Sequence record: PZ386948.1
Direction: 5' to 3' (one strand)
Length of the DNA: 64,000 nucleotides
Origin: a phage
Part shown: one piece after another, positions 1,561 through 37,507 of the stretch
Layout of the letters: each line of letters starts with the position of its first letter
Position numbering within the stretch: the stretch's first letter is position 1
Program-made: the position numbers and the translations under genes
The notes under the pieces: model-generated
Databases searched by the model: none
Told to the model about the DNA's origin: nothing
Seen by the model: only the letters and a program-made list of their open reading frames with translations

Positions 1561-2576
1561 TGTGTTGCCTCTACATATAGCTGATTCGCATATTGAATAA
1601 GTGCTTCACGGTCAGAATCAGTGATGTCTGGAATTGCATTAATGTATTCTTCCATCAACGTCTGAAGAGATTGAACTTCAACTTCTTCACTTTCATCTGA
1701 CTCGACAGAGTTATCAATTTTTGACACAACTCGTAATGAATGCACAACTTTTTCTAGTTCAGATTCGAACTTCGTCAGATTTTTGTCTACCTCAGTTACT
1801 ATAACACGTACTGATAGATTTGTAAAATCTTTATAGTCAATTTTTCCTTTAAATGGATAATGAATTCTACGATGCCAGGTAGTATTGTTTGGAATAAATT
1901 CCATTCGTTCTGTTTCTGTATCAAACATCCAGAACCCACGAGGGTCATTCTCGTCACCTGCAGTTAGTGTCCATGGTGTCCCAATATATCTGACGTTAGC
2001 AGCCTCAGAGATAGTATGGAAGTGACCAGACCACACCTCTTTATAAGTCTTAAGGAAATCAGGTTCAAGACCGTGAGATTTCATTCCTTTATAAAAATAA
2101 AATCCATTCAGCTCCCAGTGACCAACACAAAAAGAAGCAGATGAAGTTTTGATGTGTTCAAGAATTTCACCAGTATTTTCTTCACACATCCAAGGAATTA
2201 AATCAATCAAACATCCGTCAAAATCTACTGTAGTAGGCTTATCATACACTTTAACATTAGGATATTTAGCCAAAAGCTCAGTAGAGGCATTTGGAGTTAA
2301 AGTATTTTTAAAGTGCATATCATGGTTTCCTACAACAGTATGTAGGGTAATACCAGCATCATCAAGCATTTGAACTATTTCACGAGCGAACTCCATAGTT
2401 TTATGTGTGATTGCTTTTCGCACATCAAAAATATCACCATATTGAATCCATACAGTAATTCCATTTTTCTTAGAATATTCTATCGCTTGCTTAATTCCAT
2501 CAATTTGAATACCGCGAATCCACTCATCATCGGCTTTAACGCCTAAATGCCAATCACCTAAATTTAAAATTTTCAT
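1557..2576 (-). CDS. 47: Recombination endonuclease subunit gp47 (Mre11/SbcD-like phosphoesterase)
   Basis: 339 aa; LGDWHLG...GDIFD...GNHD metallophosphoesterase motifs; T4 order a-gt/47/46. Confidence 0.9.
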   Translation of the reverse strand: MKILNLGDWHLGVKADDEWIRGIQIDGIKQAIEYSKKNGITVWIQYGDIFDVRKAITHKTMEFAREIVQMLDDAGITLHTVVGNHDMHFKNTLTPNASTELLAKYPNVKVYDKPTTVDFDGCLIDLIPWMCEENTGEILEHIKTSSASFCVGHWELNGFYFYKGMKSHGLEPDFLKTYKEVWSGHFHTISEAANVRYIGTPWTLTAGDENDPRGFWMFDTETERMEFIPNNTTWHRRIHYPFKGKIDYKDFTNLSVRVIVTEVDKNLTKFESELEKVVHSLRVVSKIDNSVESDESEEVEVQSLQTLMEEYINAIPDITDSDREALIQYANQLYVEATQ

Positions 2577-23801: not shown

Positions 23802-24091
23802 TCAGTCTCCAATTTAATGTTCATAATTCTAGCGTATGATTGTGCCATCTCCGCGCCTCGCTCTATACATTCAAAATCGGAAGAGCACGGGTCATTTTTA
23901 TAAGTCGTTCGCATAAAACTATAGAACTGTTCAGATGATTCTACGCTTTTGTTTTCAAAAAGCATATAAACGTGTCTAATACCAGATTCCATAAATTTAT
24001 CAAAATGAGGATCGACATTCGCTTCAATTGGTGGAGATAAAGCAAACGCTAATCCTAGCATGGCAAATAGTGCCGTTGCTTTTAAGGCCAT
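23798..24091 (-). CDS. rI: Lysis-inhibition regulator RI-like (secreted)
   Basis: 97 aa with N-terminal signal/SAR-like segment MALKATALFAMLGLAFALSPPIEA; located just upstream of tk region as in T4. Confidence 0.7.
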   Translation of the reverse strand: MALKATALFAMLGLAFALSPPIEANVDPHFDKFMESGIRHVYMLFENKSVESSEQFYSFMRTTYKNDPCSSDFECIERGAEMAQSYARIMNIKLETE

Positions 24092-24103
24092 AAAGGCCTC
24101 CTA

Positions 24104-24316
24104 TCATTTTTGTCCTGTATTTACTTTATGCCGATGCACGGCCTTAACTTTATCAAGGTATTTTTCAAAATTTCGCAATCTAGTATAGTCTGCCGGAGAT
24201 TGGTTGAGTGATACTTCTCGACGCAAAGCTGAAATGATATTTCCAACTTCCCTACGAATTTCATCTAATTGAAGAACAGTAAGATTGCGAAGTTGCTTTT
24301 CAGTTAATTGTAGCAT
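24104..24316 (-). CDS. Hypothetical protein
   Basis: 70-aa ORF. Confidence 0.45.
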
Positions 24317-24358
24317 ATATACCCCTTTAGTTAGATAAACCTATTTATAACTTTTGCA

Positions 24359-24940
24359 CTAACCGAGCTTTTTAGTTAATTCATTCCAATGTTTTCTACA
24401 CAAAGAAACATAAATTTCATCACCAATACAGATTTGATTACCTTCTTTAACTGGTGTTCCATCTTCCATTAATCGAGCTGTCATAATAGCTTTTTTACCA
24501 CAATGACAAACTGCCTTTAGTTCAATAAGTTTATCTGCAATCGCCAAAAGTTCTTTAGAACCTTCAAATAATTTTCCAGCGAAATCAGTCCTTAGCCCAT
24601 AAGCCATAACAGGAACATTATATGTATCAACAATTCGACTTAATTGATGCACCTGTTTAGTTTTTAAAAACTGAGCTTCATCTACAAATACACAATGAAT
24701 ATCTTTTTGTGCTTCAGCCCATTTATAGAACTCAAAAATATCCATATCATCCGTAATAATATTCGCTTCCTGCTTAATTCCAATGCGAGAAACGACTTCA
24801 CAGACAGAATCACGAGTATCAATAGCAGGCTTAAGAACTAATACACCCATTCCGCGTTCTTTATAATTATGTGCAGCAGTCAAAAGAGAAGCAGATTTTC
24901 CAGCATTCATTGCTGCGTAAGTAAAAATTAAACTCGCCAT
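24359..24940 (-). CDS. tk: Thymidine kinase
   Basis: 193 aa; P-loop MNAGKS, C-terminal Zn-binding CHCGKKA...C; classic TK1-type. Confidence 0.92.
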   Translation of the reverse strand: MASLIFTYAAMNAGKSASLLTAAHNYKERGMGVLVLKPAIDTRDSVCEVVSRIGIKQEANIITDDMDIFEFYKWAEAQKDIHCVFVDEAQFLKTKQVHQLSRIVDTYNVPVMAYGLRTDFAGKLFEGSKELLAIADKLIELKAVCHCGKKAIMTARLMEDGTPVKEGNQICIGDEIYVSLCRKHWNELTKKLG

Positions 24941-34221: not shown

Positions 34222-34352
34222 GTTTTGTGAAAAAATTTTTAAAAAGTTTTGGGGAATTCTAGGGCAGGAAGGGGAAATCAAAGGATAGGATAATATATTA
34301 TAAAGGGTAGAAACTAAATGATGTCTAGAGAGGCCTGGAAAGGCCTAGATAC

Positions 34353-34380
34353 CAAAAAGCCCCAACCTTTCGGTCGGGGC
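34353..34380 (-). terminator. Rho-independent terminator, copy 1 of an identical 31-bp element
   Basis: gccccgacc-gaaa-gguuggggc hairpin followed by UUUUU; identical to 34909-34939. Confidence 0.7.
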
Positions 34381-34388
34381 TAAGAATG

Positions 34389-34862
34389 TTATTTGATTTG
34401 TTTAGCAGACCAAATGCGATCTTTAATAATTTTTTGGATGTCTTCAACATACACAAGAGAGTGAGCATGTGGATTATCTTTGAAACTATAAGCACGAGCT
34501 AGTTTTTGGCCTTCAGTTTTGATTACTAAAAGCTCTTTAAGGATAGCTTCATATTTGGAGATAATTCCTTTAACAATATTTTTTTCTTGTGCAGCTTTAG
34601 GATCTGCTTTAGGAGCAGGTTTACCCGAAGCCTTTGCAAAAGCAGCGCCAGTAGCAACTAAACTTTTCCAGGCCATACTAACTGCATTTCCCGTAAATCC
34701 TTCCGCTTTCATGTCGCGTGCGAACTGGAATCGCGATTCATCAGAAGCATCTTTATAAGAATATTTACCCGCTGCAATGGCTGCTTTTGCGACAGCTTGA
34801 ATTTCGGTGCTAGATGCTTCATTTAACACCGCTTCATTTAAAAATTGAGTATATGATTTCAT
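34389..34862 (-). CDS. Internal-protein-like protein with capsid-targeting sequence
   Basis: 157 aa; N-terminus MKSYTQFLNE|A resembles the T4 IP targeting sequence MKTYQEF... with an LxE cleavage motif. Confidence 0.6.
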   Translation of the reverse strand: MKSYTQFLNEAVLNEASSTEIQAVAKAAIAAGKYSYKDASDESRFQFARDMKAEGFTGNAVSMAWKSLVATGAAFAKASGKPAPKADPKAAQEKNIVKGIISKYEAILKELLVIKTEGQKLARAYSFKDNPHAHSLVYVEDIQKIIKDRIWSAKQIK

Positions 34863-34898
34863 CTTATTTCCTGTTTTAATTCGTGGTTTTAATATACT

Positions 34899-34906
34899 TA
34901 TTTATA
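34899..34906 (-). promoter_or_regulatory. Late promoter (TATAAATA) for the IP-like gene
   Basis: Exact TATAAATA on the minus strand about 37 bp upstream of the ATG. Confidence 0.55.
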
Positions 34907-34907
34907 C

Positions 34908-34935
34908 TAAAAAGCCCCAACCTTTCGGTCGGGGC
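34908..34935 (-). terminator. Rho-independent terminator, copy 2 of the identical 31-bp element
   Basis: Same hairpin as 34353-34380 with U-run. Confidence 0.7.
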
Positions 34936-34941
34936 TAAGCC

Positions 34942-35235
34942 TTGCGGCAACCTTGTCGGGGTTCCACCTGCTAAGGCAAGTGTTTGTACGAAACGCCGGG
35001 ATTCGAACCCGGTTATTAAGCAGTTGACGCTACTCAATATTTTTAAAAGGCCATATCTCGACCATATCCGAACGTTCCGTCAAAAACGCTACTCGGCTTA
35101 CGGCAAAGATATTTCCTCGAATCGATAATTCGGTGCGCCGTTTCTGCTGTGATGTAAGAGGGCATCAATAAACGCAAAGATTATTAACGCAATTCCTTAC
35201 TCAGGGAACATCAGTCCGACGACTTACCGGTAGCG
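34942..35235 (-). ncRNA. Structured GC-rich non-coding region, candidate stable small RNAs (T4 rnaC/rnaD-like position)
   Basis: No ORF; tRNA-like T-arm CCGGGTTCGAATCCCGG on the minus strand; sits between tRNA-Arg and the terminator as species 1/2 RNAs do in T4; boundaries approximate. Confidence 0.35.
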
Positions 35236-35245
35236 ACCCGGTTTC

Positions 35246-35596
35246 TTAATATTCTTTTAAAGCATCAATCTGTTTACGGCGTTCACGCCATAAATCAATT
35301 GCTTCATACGCGGATTCAACATTTCGAATTGGACGGCATTTATATAAAGATTTGTGATTTTGATATTGCGTAGATAACGGAATTTTATCTAAAAGGTCTT
35401 TACGTTCAAAGTATTCGTAACCATCTAAGCCAAATGAACGATTTTTGAGAAATTGCCAATGACCAAATTCGTTTTGAATATAAATATAATCCGCATGTTG
35501 ATAAAGTAAATTAATTTCACGAAATGAGATATGTTTTTCATATTCATTGAAGTAAAATGTTAAATCATGAACTACTAAATAAACATTACCTTTCAT
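35246..35596 (-). CDS. Hypothetical protein
   Basis: 116 aa with GAGG RBS, immediately downstream of tRNA-Arg. Confidence 0.5.
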   Translation of the reverse strand: MKGNVYLVVHDLTFYFNEYEKHISFREINLLYQHADYIYIQNEFGHWQFLKNRSFGLDGYEYFERKDLLDKIPLSTQYQNHKSLYKCRPIRNVESAYEAIDLWRERRKQIDALKEY

Positions 35597-35614
35597 ATTT
35601 TCCTCACTTATAAT

Positions 35615-35690
35615 TGGTCGAGGCAGTAGGGATCGAACCTACGACCTAGGACTTAGAAGGTCCTTGCTCTTCCTTCTGAGCTATGCCCCG
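35615..35690 (-). tRNA. tRNA-Arg (anticodon UCU)
   Basis: Manual cloverleaf: acceptor CGGGGCA/TGCCTCG, anticodon loop CTTCTAA, T-arm GTAGG-TTCGATC-CCTAC, 3' ACCA. Confidence 0.8.
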
Positions 35691-35694
35691 TAAT

Positions 35695-35781
35695 TGGGGT
35701 GACCGATGGGAGTCGAACCACCCGAGTCGCAATGACAATGGATTTACAGTCCACACCGCTACCTCTACGGGATAACTCCCC
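35695..35781 (-). tRNA. tRNA-Tyr(GUA)-like class II element, probably degenerate
   Basis: Canonical anticodon arm GTGGA-CTGTAAA-TCCAT, long variable arm, TTCGACT T-loop and 3' CCA, but acceptor and T stems pair poorly. Confidence 0.4.
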
Positions 35782-35794
35782 TTAATTCTTAATT

Positions 35795-35869
35795 TGGTGG
35801 CCCTGGGTGGAATTGAACCACCATCTGGCGATTATGAGTCGCTTGCTTGAACCTTCCAGCTACAGGGCC
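35795..35869 (-). tRNA. tRNA-Ile/Met (anticodon CAU)
   Basis: Acceptor GGCCCTG/CAGGGCC, anticodon loop CTCATAA, T-arm GGTGG-TTCAATT-CCACC, 3' ACCA. Confidence 0.75.
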
Positions 35870-35870
35870 T

Positions 35871-35946
35871 TGGTGCTGATTGACGGAATCGAACCGCCGA
35901 CCTTCTCATTACAAGTGAGTTGCTCTACCTACTGAGCTAAATCAGC
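35871..35946 (-). tRNA. tRNA-Thr (anticodon UGU)
   Basis: Acceptor GCTGATT/AATCAGC, anticodon loop CTTGTAA, T-loop GGTTCGATTCC, 3' ACCA. Confidence 0.8.
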
Positions 35947-35951
35947 AAAAC

Positions 35952-36041
35952 TGGCGGAGGCGATAGGATTTGAACCTATGAGTCGCCGGAGCGACTGCCG
36001 GTTTTCAAGACCGGTGCATTAAACCACTCTGCCACGCCTCC
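35952..36041 (-). tRNA. tRNA-Ser (anticodon UGA), class II
   Basis: 90 nt; acceptor GGAGGCG/CGCCTCC, anticodon loop CTTGAAA, long variable arm, T-loop GGTTCAAATCC, 3' GCCA. Confidence 0.8.
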
Positions 36042-36047
36042 AAATAT

Positions 36048-36698
36048 TTATATATTGTTAATTTGATTTAGAATTCTTTTTGCTTGAGTATGACTTACGC
36101 CAATATGCTTAGCATATTTAGACAATTCGCCACGTTTAGAAAAATCATATAATTTAGAAATTTCTATTCTTCTTTTTCTTTCATCCGCAGAAACTTTTGC
36201 TTCGTTTGCTTTTGCTATTTTACGTTTAGCTTCTTGAGAATGAGTTTTACCAGCAAAGCCATTCTTCATTAATCCATTTGAAGACCATCCTTTTAATTTT
36301 CCGTTAGAATGTGCCTTTTTAACACCCAATGAAATTAATTCGCGTTGCTGATCTGTCATAGGATAATTATTTATATGATCCCATCCACCTTCACCTCCAA
36401 GTTTTAAATTATACACATCTGGTCTATTTAAAAACTCTTCTGTGACAATATTTTTCTCGGCTTCAAGCATAGATTCTTTATCGTCAAAATACTCTAATAT
36501 TTCTTTAGAAAAATTTTCTATACCATATTTATCTTGGGCTCTTTTTAATAATTTACCAGAACCCATATATCCATCATCTAAATTTTCGGTAGAATGCACA
36601 CCAATATAAATTTTATTATTAATTTTATTTGTTATTTTATAAAGATAAAAATGCATATCAGTCCCTAATAAAGAACTGAGCGTCTCACGACGAGTCAT
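36048..36698 (-). CDS. segB: GIY-YIG homing endonuclease (SegB-like, within the tRNA cluster)
   Basis: 216 aa; N-terminal GIY-YIG module (YLYKITNKINNKIYIGVHST...GYMGSGKLLKRA); lies between tRNA genes as segB does in T4. Confidence 0.75.
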   Translation of the reverse strand: MTRRETLSSLLGTDMHFYLYKITNKINNKIYIGVHSTENLDDGYMGSGKLLKRAQDKYGIENFSKEILEYFDDKESMLEAEKNIVTEEFLNRPDVYNLKLGGEGGWDHINNYPMTDQQRELISLGVKKAHSNGKLKGWSSNGLMKNGFAGKTHSQEAKRKIAKANEAKVSADERKRRIEISKLYDFSKRGELSKYAKHIGVSHTQAKRILNQINNI

Positions 36699-36702
36699 AA
36701 AT

Positions 36703-36776
<74 letters not shown>

Positions 36777-36781
36777 AAATT

Positions 36782-36868
36782 TGGTGCGAGAAGTGGGACT
36801 CGAACCCACAAGGAAATCATTCCGCAGCATTTTAAGTGCTGTGCCTTTACCAATTTGACCATTCTCGC
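36782..36868 (-). tRNA. tRNA-Leu (anticodon UAA), class II
   Basis: 87 nt; acceptor GCGAGAA/TTCTCGC, anticodon stem-loop CAGCA-CTTAAAA-TGCTG, long variable arm, T-loop GGGTTCGAGTCCC, 3' ACCA. Confidence 0.8.
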
Positions 36869-36874
36869 GCTATA

Positions 36875-37507
36875 TTATTTATTACGTGAAAAAGACTGTT
36901 CTATCAATTCTGGACACTTTCGTTCTATCCATTTTCTAGCTTTTTGTGGGCTTATACCTATTATTTTAGCAGCTTTACTAACCCATCCAAATTTAGAATA
37001 ATCGATTTTAACTAATTCTTCGTAAATTTCATCAGTTAAAATCTTTTCATTAATATTTACCAGTAAATGATATAATTTATTATCATTAGCAATTTTAATG
37101 AATCTTTTATAGTTTCCGCCTTTACTTAAACCTAATGAAGTAATTGCAGATGATATAGTAGCCGAATTTAATAGTGCGTTTAAAATTTCTTCATCACTAA
37201 CATTATAACGCTTTTTATTATTTTTAATATTTTTACCAGCAAAAGTATCAGTTTGCGAATGGCAGTTTGGACATAATAATCTTAAATTTGATTTAAGATG
37301 ATTTTTGTTATTTCCATCAATATGGTCTAATTGCAGAACAATATGCTTATTTTGCCATTTTGAAATTTTACAAATTGCACACTCATATGGAAAAATATTT
37401 TCTTTTATTATTTTGTCTTTCAGCTTTCCTGTACTAAAATTTGGATGTTTTCCTTCAAAAATTTCAGCTAATTTAGTATCCATAATATGATTCCCAATTA
37501 TTAACAA
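36875..37507 (-). CDS. HNH homing endonuclease
   Basis: 210 aa; LQLDHIDGNNKNH...LRLLCPNCHSQTD (HNH with Zn-binding Cys); stop abuts tRNA-Leu. Confidence 0.75.
   Translation of the reverse strand: MLIIGNHIMDTKLAEIFEGKHPNFSTGKLKDKIIKENIFPYECAICKISKWQNKHIVLQLDHIDGNNKNHLKSNLRLLCPNCHSQTDTFAGKNIKNNKKRYNVSDEEILNALLNSATISSAITSLGLSKGGNYKRFIKIANDNKLYHLLVNINEKILTDEIYEELVKIDYSKFGWVSKAAKIIGISPQKARKWIERKCPELIEQSFSRNK

Follow-up and report, generated by a model that had tools for sequence, protein, structure and literature searches.

The GC-rich, highly structured DNA downstream of tRNA-Arg in this phage almost certainly contains, as judged from sequence and gene order, the Tequatrovirus orthologues of two small stable RNAs of phage T4, rnaD (species 2) and rnaC (species 1). 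The window, by which we mean the whole 64,000-nucleotide stretch that was analysed (sequence record PZ386948.1), is a segment of a T4-like (Tequatrovirus) phage genome. Knowledge of both RNAs in T4 dates from the 1970s, and the finding is thus the re-identification of an element described some 50 years ago; what is new here is comparative detail of its structure, together with an annotation gap, since most of the ~800 related GenBank records leave the element unannotated or cover it with a 'hypothetical protein' CDS, and Rfam holds no model for it. The best overall explanation of the region, and one that we consider very probable, is that it comprises the rnaD and rnaC orthologues, followed by a conserved 3′ trailer and then the tRNA-operon terminator (Table 1), taken together with the mechanism proposed below.

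In T4 (NC_000866) rnaD is annotated at 71053–71171 and rnaC at 70908–71046, directly after tRNA-Arg. In a three-way alignment the sequences match almost base for base from the 5′ hairpin of rnaD up to and including the terminator, and both RNAs are homologous to their T4 counterparts over their full length. The rnaC sequence is identical to T4 at 137 of 139 nt (98.6% over 139 nt by BLAST), leaving two substitutions in the phage under study, while rnaD (99.1% over 116 nt by BLAST) differs by one G deletion and in its first 3–4 nt, the latter because the RNA here is preceded by an ORF's stop codon and not by tRNA-Arg. Each RNA is 100% identical to its equivalent in phage Aplg8, where these exact stretches are labelled 'rnaD, species 2 RNA' and 'rnaC, species 1 RNA'. 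Strand, T-arm and the order rnaD–rnaC–trailer–terminator are shared with T4, as are the 5′ hairpin, basal stem and type-A apical domain of rnaD. The sequence-only reading had suggested a counterpart of T4 rnaC/rnaD and had proposed alignment with the T4 sequences as a check; the T4 alignment, the BLAST identities and the Aplg8 annotation together support that suggestion across the whole unit. The Rfam search that it also proposed is uninformative as to identity, because Rfam 15 has no family for rnaC or rnaD, and nothing in the region reaches threshold.

The same reading had described positions 34942–35235 as GC-rich, rich in stems and free of any credible ORF, all of which holds. Their G+C content is 0.469, compared to 0.347 for the whole window (47% versus 35% for 35249–34908 on the minus strand), and the 345-nt unit as a whole folds far better than its dinucleotide shuffles (z = -6.07). 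The minus strand contains no ATG-started ORF for ~340 nt between a 116-aa ORF and an intrinsic terminator, and only three ORFs of at least 25 aa overlap the interval, all short (44–81 aa) and all with TTG or GTG starts. It could be argued from these overlapping ORFs, and from the many GenBank records that place a 'hypothetical protein' CDS there, that the region encodes a small protein. We rejected this reading as vanishingly improbable, since none of the ORFs starts with ATG, variation among relatives tracks base pairing with stems preserved through changes on both sides, and the products established in T4 by RNA sequencing and northern blotting are RNAs. The interval itself requires adjustment at both ends: the unit begins at about 35249, so that the rnaD 5′ hairpin starts 14 nt outside it, and its final 45 nt (34986–34942) belong to the conserved 3′ trailer, outside both annotated RNAs.

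Table 1. Features of the rnaD/rnaC unit and its surroundings (positions in the window)
Feature	Positions	Strand	Basis or remark
tRNA-Arg(TCT), final tRNA of the operon	35615..35690	-	ARAGORN, Rfam
116-aa ORF (phrog_3355) between tRNA-Arg and rnaD	35246..35596	-	T4 lacks it
rnaD (species 2 RNA), 118 nt	35132..35249	-	position of T4 71053-71171, sequence identity
A/U-rich 6-nt spacer GAAUUA from rnaD to rnaC (rnaC 5′ leader)	35126..35131	-	alignment
rnaC (species 1 RNA), 139 nt as annotated in T4	34987..35125	-	T4/Aplg8 identity, covariance model
rnaC acceptor-like stem, 5′ strand CGAUUCG	35118..35124	-	pairs with 34995-34989 (CGUUUCG)
rnaC arm I, D-arm position, 70-nt irregular hairpin	35048..35117	-	fold, covariation
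Arm I apical loop UUGACG	35078..35083	-	complementary to arm II loop
A-rich single-stranded linker UUAAAAAU, arm I to arm II	35040..35047	-	unpaired in MFE fold
rnaC arm II, anticodon-arm position, 10-bp stem and 6-nt loop CGUCAA (35029-35024)	35014..35039	-	compensatory changes
rnaC T-arm CCGGG-UUCGAAU-CCCGG, CCGGGTTCGAATCCCGG	34996..35012	-	read directly from sequence
rnaC acceptor 3′ strand CGUUUCG and conserved tail U-A-C-A-A	34984..34995	-	30-sequence alignment
Conserved 3′ trailer, two main hairpins and a short third	34937..34983	-	fold, retention in relatives
Intrinsic terminator, 10-bp G+C-rich stem, GAAA loop, U tract	34908..34936	-	sequence, Aplg8 annotation
Short ORF, 53 aa	34876-35037	-	non-ATG start
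Short ORF, 81 aa	34883-35128	+	non-ATG start
Short ORF, 44 aa	35043-35177	-	non-ATG start

The unit occupies the 3′ end of a tRNA transcription unit. ARAGORN and Rfam identify tRNAs for Leu, Gly, Ser, Thr, Met(CAT) and Arg(TCT) on the minus strand at 36868–35615, and after tRNA-Arg the order on that strand is 116-aa ORF, rnaD, rnaC, trailer and terminator. Thus rnaC lies on the tRNA-operon strand, 3′ of rnaD and 5′ of the operon terminator, and rnaD lies on the same strand between tRNA-Arg and rnaC, despite the ORF. The earlier placement of the element downstream of tRNA-Arg was right as to order, with the correction that the two do not abut directly: in T4 rnaD starts 1 nt past tRNA-Arg, whereas here the ORF (35596–35246) intervenes and its stop codon abuts the rnaD 5′ end. 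The tRNA-region cluster of the window also contains GIY-YIG and HNH genes, and a chimeric Tyr/His pseudo-tRNA lies close by.

At the other end, the strong terminator predicted in the sequence-only reading is present as AGCCCCGACCGAAAGGTTGGGGCT followed by TTTTT at 34936–34913(-), with 10 pairs of which 7 are G-C. This G+C-rich hairpin with its U tract on the transcribed strand has the form of an intrinsic (Rho-independent) terminator, and the homologous site in Aplg8 is annotated as a terminator. A second, identical copy lies at 34381–34358; this copy and an extra ORF downstream distinguish the surroundings of the unit from those in T4. The trailer that precedes the terminator forms two main hairpins (CACUUGC/GCAGGUG and AACC-CCGACAA-GGUU) followed by a short GCC-GCAA-GGC hairpin, and trailer and terminator together fold with z = -4.12.

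The minimum free energy (MFE) structure of rnaC (-50.2 kcal/mol, z = -4.55, with none of 200 shuffles as good) is a four-way junction of an acceptor-like stem, arm I, an 8-nt linker, arm II and a T-arm, the last two separated by one nucleotide. For comparison we aligned 30 distinct rnaC homologues from at least eight Tevenvirinae genera, represented in GenBank by Tequatrovirus, Gaprivervirus (VR7), Karamvirus, Kanagawavirus, Moonvirus, Gelderlandvirus and Marfavirus, with further homologues from Edwardsiella phage PEi20, Citrobacter phage Ursula and IMG/VR contigs; RB69 (Mosigvirus) was left out of this alignment. Standard pairs occupy 97.6% of cells across the 30 sequences, compared to 33–45% if partners are slid by 1–3 columns, both-sided changes occur in 17 of the 34 pairs, and the covariation score observed was reached by none of 500 shuffles. 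The rnaC secondary structure, a tRNA-like four-way junction, is therefore supported by covariation. A covariance model (R1) scores the rnaC of this phage at 159 bits and detects a single copy in the window.

Each element of the junction contributes to this pattern. In the acceptor-like stem, pair 3 changes from A-U to G-C in 20 of the 30 sequences and the other four pairs are invariant, as is a tandem U-U mismatch (UU/UU) at positions 4–5. Arm I keeps a length of 70–72 nt in every clade although its identity drops to ~63% in several; all five pairs of its apical stem covary, as do 8 of the 21 pairs in the divergent class. Compensatory changes are found in nine of the ten pairs of arm II, the loop of which (CGUCAA) is invariant apart from a co-varying U to C change, and four positions of the linker UUAAAAAU are invariant. 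The tRNA-like T-arm noted in the sequence-only reading, CCGGGTTCGAATCCCGG at 35012–34996(-), is confirmed, with a middle stem pair that appears as G-C, U-A and A-U among the homologues, and a T-loop that is canonical in most clades and reads UGCAUGC in the CIP9/Q7622 (Kanagawavirus) clade. In the tail, U138, C140 and A141 are invariant; it is U-A-C-A-A in most clades and U-C-C-A-A, equivalent to a tRNA-type NCCA end, in the Marfavirus clade.

One alternative is that rnaC and rnaD are decaying tRNA relics, or passengers of homing endonucleases, with no function. Endonuclease-driven exchange is concentrated in this region, with GIY-YIG and HNH genes in the cluster and a chimeric Tyr/His pseudo-tRNA nearby, homing by SegB is documented (PMC2330249), and rnaD, rnaC and the trailer come and go in the manner of cassettes. 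However, 17 pairs with compensatory changes alongside invariant unpaired nucleotides, the 99% identity between T4-type and RB69 rnaC (87% for rnaD), and the presence of the element in at least eight genera argue against decay, and we consider this explanation improbable.

The resemblance of rnaC to a canonical tRNA (RF00005) is confined to part of the molecule. A seven-position acceptor is stacked coaxially on a 5-bp T-stem whose loop is UUCGAAU (UUCRANY in general form) within a four-way junction, with covariation in both stems. In addition, rnaC is located in operons and slots typical of tRNAs, and the tail encoded in one clade resembles NCCA. It differs in that the 70-nt arm I replaces the D-arm, a 10-bp stem with a 6-nt loop replaces the anticodon arm with its 7-nt loop, and the acceptor carries the invariant tandem U-U mismatch and is followed by an encoded UACA tail in the phage under study (UCCA in the Marfavirus clade). 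ARAGORN calls no tRNA or tmRNA in 34900–35250, RF00005 has no match in the rnaC/rnaD region even at E ≤ 10, and no Rfam family covers the region either at gathering thresholds or at E ≤ 10, where only chance matches to isrK (16.5 bits) and anti-hemB (14.3 bits) appear. The tRNA-like domains of tmRNA and of YrlA, a bacterial Y-like RNA, offer a parallel to the role proposed below for rnaC, since these non-decoding RNAs mimic acceptor and T-arm to engage tRNA-handling proteins; however, rnaC has neither a tag reading frame nor pseudoknots like those of the former, and it is without the long terminal stem of the latter, its own ends being the acceptor stem itself. In YrlA that long terminal stem is the Ro-binding site. 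The tmRNA and YrlA models find nothing in 34300–37200 at E ≤ 10, apart from a chance permuted-tmRNA match of 14.7 bits lying over the tRNAs.

The loops of arms I and II, UUGACG and CGUCAA, are complementary at six of six positions in all 30 distinct sequences, and remain so even in the clades where divergence elsewhere in arm I is greatest (~63% identity). Five sequences, from Marfavirus-type Klebsiella phages, carry a joint change to UUGGCG/CGCCAA. The predicted duplex energies of the matched loops are -5.5 and -7.6 kcal/mol, compared to -0.4 kcal/mol for one mismatched combination. We think it somewhat more probable than the contrary, on the basis of this conservation, that the two loops form a kissing contact within one molecule or between two. 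The contact is suggested rather than proven, since the covariation amounts to a single evolutionary event; as a separate point, a G-U intermediate would preserve the pairing. An intramolecular kiss would require a sharp bend in arm I, because arm I spans ~26 bp and arm II 10 bp. Two 6-nt loops with full Watson-Crick complementarity are also found in HIV TAR-TAR* and ColE1 RNA I/RNA II; in rnaC, by contrast, both loops lie in one RNA, and their pairing, unlike that in the two known systems, is deduced only from conservation and one covariation event.

These conserved loops bear on a second alternative, namely that rnaC, rnaD or both act in trans by base pairing with host or phage mRNAs through the A-rich linker and loops of rnaC or the CACAGCNGAAAC segment of rnaD. 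The two RNAs have been termed 'small regulatory RNAs' (PMC9697503), both contain invariant unpaired stretches, and the rnaD apical domain varies among phages as a target-matching module might. On the other hand, the two most conserved loops of rnaC are complementary to each other and not free, and 5,426 E. coli genomes contain no similar or complementary stretch, bearing in mind that blastn is weak for short seeds. No target is known, and according to reviews a trans-acting sRNA was never characterised in T4 (PMC3014915). We therefore regard this explanation as unlikely, though less so than functionless decay.

The structure of rnaD is partly supported by covariation. It begins with a 5′ hairpin (ACCGG/CCGGU), followed by a long irregular stem closed by GUCGUCG/CGGCG-AC and a variable apical domain; on its own it folds only marginally better than shuffled sequences (z = -1.64). 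In a consensus fold derived from 16 distinct homologues, neither the 5′ hairpin nor the basal stem varies, and five pairs covary. Among the same 16 sequences the apical domain is represented by at least four unrelated sequence types, each of which can still form a hairpin. A pairing of GAAACG in rnaD with the rnaC 3′ strand CGUUUC, used in the MFE fold of the whole precursor, was set aside, since phages without rnaC also retain GAAACG in their rnaD.

The components of the unit occur independently of one another. In IME08 (Dhakavirus) and several T4-like IMG/VR contigs rnaD is followed directly by the trailer and rnaC is absent, while in VR20 a CDS takes the place of rnaC and the trailer follows that CDS; rnaC is therefore dispensable in some lineages. 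Conversely, the Karamvirus, Kanagawavirus, Moonvirus, Gelderlandvirus and Marfavirus phages have rnaC with no detectable rnaD beside it. The trailer is also kept in RB69 (Mosigvirus), where the covariance model and BLAST revealed an unannotated rnaD–rnaC–trailer unit with identities to the window of 99.3% for rnaC, 96% for the trailer and 87% for rnaD, which indicates that rnaC is under strong constraint.

Beyond these examples, megablast with the region matched 763 phage records, nearly all T4-like, and the rnaD/rnaC unit is carried by 806 T4-like phage records. Two sequence patterns were applied to IMG/VR, GCGTCAAC...GGTTCGAATCC with 10 loci and TTCGAGGA...GGCGTTYCGT with 113 loci, the latter mostly chance matches; among the pooled loci of this stage nhmmer recognised 28 real rnaC homologues, on T4-like contigs wherever this could be judged. 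Two of the 10 loci from the first pattern (L012 and L015) were discarded as chance-like, without homology to rnaC, as were five metagenome matches lacking the conserved rnaC 5′ acceptor strand, and about half of the matches to a pattern for the rnaD 5′ hairpin in IMG/VR arose by chance inside unrelated coding sequence. The metagenome scan yielded only T4-like contigs and no new clade. Scanning 185,579 genomes of bacteria and archaea revealed no homologue, and none of 5,426 complete E. coli genomes gave a blastn match, so that nothing points to an origin in a host or prophage.

In Karamvirus and Gelderlandvirus rnaC occupies a slot between tRNA-Trp and tRNA-Gly, only a few nucleotides from either (this slot holds rnaC in fGh-Ecl01, CW742, Melville and KaAlpha), and in CIP9 and Q7622 it follows tRNA-Met; the equivalent of the 5′ leader follows tRNA-Trp or tRNA-Met in these genera, and the distance from rnaC to the flanking tRNAs is 3–6 nt. 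This bears on a third alternative, in which the unit acts only in cis, as a structured operon end that shields the tRNAs from 3′ exonucleases or guides their processing, the stable RNAs being by-products. Conservation of the trailer hairpins even where rnaC is absent would fit such a role, as would a location always at the 3′ operon end before the terminator, as counted for this explanation; however, the rnaC of Karamvirus, Gelderlandvirus and Moonvirus is internal to the tRNA cluster and not at its 3′ end. Furthermore, the terminator hairpin would suffice for protection by itself, and the invariant loop sequences and U-U mismatch exceed the needs of a protective structure. A purely cis-acting unit is in our view also unlikely, slightly more so than base pairing in trans.

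We favour instead a model in which the unit would be transcribed as the tail of a polycistronic tRNA precursor, from which rnaC would be excised by the tRNA-processing enzymes of the host, through cleavage by RNase P at the 5′ end and through trimming at the 3′ end, because it offers these enzymes a coaxial acceptor/T-arm unit. In T4 both RNAs are presumed to be cut from a ~1.75-kb precursor that also holds eight tRNAs and segB (PMC2330249). The location of rnaC in tRNA slots, the short spacers and the NCCA-type tail support excision by the tRNA-processing machinery, which we consider likely, while the UGCAUGC T-loop of the CIP9/Q7622 clade speaks against an absolute requirement for enzymes specific to the T-loop. 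Once released, rnaC would accumulate as a stable RNA by virtue of its compact folding. Published data for T4 place RNAC and RNAD among the late RNAs on the basis of RNA-seq and confirm RNAC by northern blot (PMC9697503).

What rnaC and rnaD do after processing can be suggested only tentatively. Papers from 2010 to 2025 describe their function as unknown (among them PMC3014915 and PMC9697503), and we found no paper assigning one to either; nor did we find anything on rnaC or rnaD in the literature on phage tRNA-like decoys, or anything relevant under the names 'species 1 RNA' and 'p2Sp1'. In our model rnaC would be non-decoding, since the 6-nt loop in the anticodon position is complementary to the arm I loop and probably kisses it, and the invariant U-U/U-U mismatch and UACA tail depart from the end of a chargeable tRNA. 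Its role may instead be to mimic a tRNA and so to occupy or titrate a factor that binds tRNAs, such as a host defence nuclease targeting tRNA or a tRNA-handling enzyme, with rnaD as an independent host-interaction module, its invariant base being the active part and its swappable apical domain tuning fitness in particular hosts. This combination is possible, although we hold it with less than even confidence. A more specific version, in which rnaC is a dedicated decoy, its acceptor/T-arm half read as a tRNA and its anticodon-loop-like UUGACG loop locked by the kiss onto a codon-like CGUCAA loop, that binds and neutralises a host defence factor targeting tRNAs, or triggers or blunts sensing by it, and rnaD a second RNA affecting host range, is doubtful, and we know of no RNA anti-defence factors of this kind described for T4-like phages. 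Against these readings, T4 mutants from which the tRNA region has been deleted remain viable in laboratory hosts, and, as noted above, some lineages do without rnaC.

The comparative model does, however, supply features that can be tested, including the tRNA slot, the U-U mismatch, the complementary loops, the modularity of the unit and the hypervariable apex of rnaD. A role in interactions with the host is plausible given the existence of defence systems that target tRNAs together with a convergent mutation in rnaD: in a 2025 evolution experiment with the T4-like phage BW1, the same rnaD SNP arose in all lines evolved on the E. coli host ECOR34 (PMC12685909). This convergence and the existence of at least four types of apical domain both favour a host-specific role for rnaD.

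The identity of acceptor pair 3 of rnaC (window positions 35122 and 34991 in A3, the alignment of distinct rnaC homologues) correlates with the presence of rnaD. The aligned sequences from Tequatrovirus and Gaprivervirus, the two genera with rnaD detected upstream of rnaC, have an A-U pair at this point (3' strand CGUUUCG), while genera carrying rnaC with no detectable rnaD nearby have G-C (CGUUCCG). The CGUUUC of rnaC is complementary to an invariant GAAACG close to the rnaD 3' end, and these two segments are paired with each other in the minimum free energy (MFE) fold of the whole precursor. The link between pair identity and rnaD may nevertheless be simply a matter of shared ancestry. A second variant affects the T-loop, which in the CIP9/Q7622 clade (loci L003, L018, L045, L099 and L112; Kanagawavirus where classified) reads UGCAUGC, including the palindrome GCAUGC, rather than UUCGAAU; this clade retains the acceptor stem with its U-U mismatch, as well as the two loops that complement each other.

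The features surrounding the unit, and two from other phages, are listed in the table. The T4 late-promoter motif TATAAATA occurs immediately upstream of tRNA-Ser, and the series Ser-Thr-Met(CAT)-Arg-ORF-rnaD-rnaC could be transcribed from it late in infection; such transcription would fit the assignment of T4 RNAC and RNAD to the late-RNA class (PMC9697503). The ORF of this series, for which no Pfam match was found, ends with a stop codon that adjoins the rnaD 5' end; T4 has no counterpart and many relatives have one. Beyond the unit, the same motif and a 157-aa ORF are flanked on either side by identical terminator copies. T4 lacks the stretch between the copies, which has the look of a cassette, either gained here by insertion or lost from T4 by deletion between the repeats.

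Coordinates of features (window unless another phage is named)
Feature	Coordinates	Strand	Place
SegB-like GIY-YIG gene, phrog_314	36048-36698	-	between tRNA-Gly and tRNA-Ser
HNH gene, phrog_14736	36875-37507	-	upstream of tRNA-Leu
Late-promoter motif	36045-36052	-	immediately upstream of tRNA-Ser
Chimeric pseudo-tRNA	35691-35794	-	tRNA-Tyr fused to tRNA-His
116-aa ORF, phrog_3355 (function unknown)	35246-35596	-	between tRNA-Arg and rnaD
24-nt terminator hairpin, two identical copies	34358-34381; 34913-34936	-	
Late-promoter motif	34906-34899	-	between terminator copies
157-aa ORF, phrog_2280 (function unknown)	34862-34389	-	between terminator copies
rnaD-rnaC-trailer unit, unannotated	RB69 (L175, NC_004928) 24079-24423	-	
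127-aa CDS	VR20 (L006) 1739-2122		in place of rnaC, between rnaD and conserved trailer

The pseudo-tRNA consists of the 5' two-thirds of tRNA-Tyr(GTA) fused to the 3' end of tRNA-His within the T-loop sequence GGTTCGACTCC, which is common to both tRNAs. Compared with the related phage Aplg8, the locus has lost the Tyr 3' end, the whole of Asn and most of His by deletion. ARAGORN made no call for it, and its Rfam tRNA score of 22.7 bits lies below the gathering score of 29. The tRNA cluster of the window also holds two homing-endonuclease-type genes, the GIY-YIG gene standing at the site of tRNA-Pro in T4 and the HNH gene at that of tRNA-Gln; neither tRNA was found in the window.

Among about 800 related GenBank records, rnaD and rnaC mostly lack annotation or lie under 'hypothetical protein' CDS calls.
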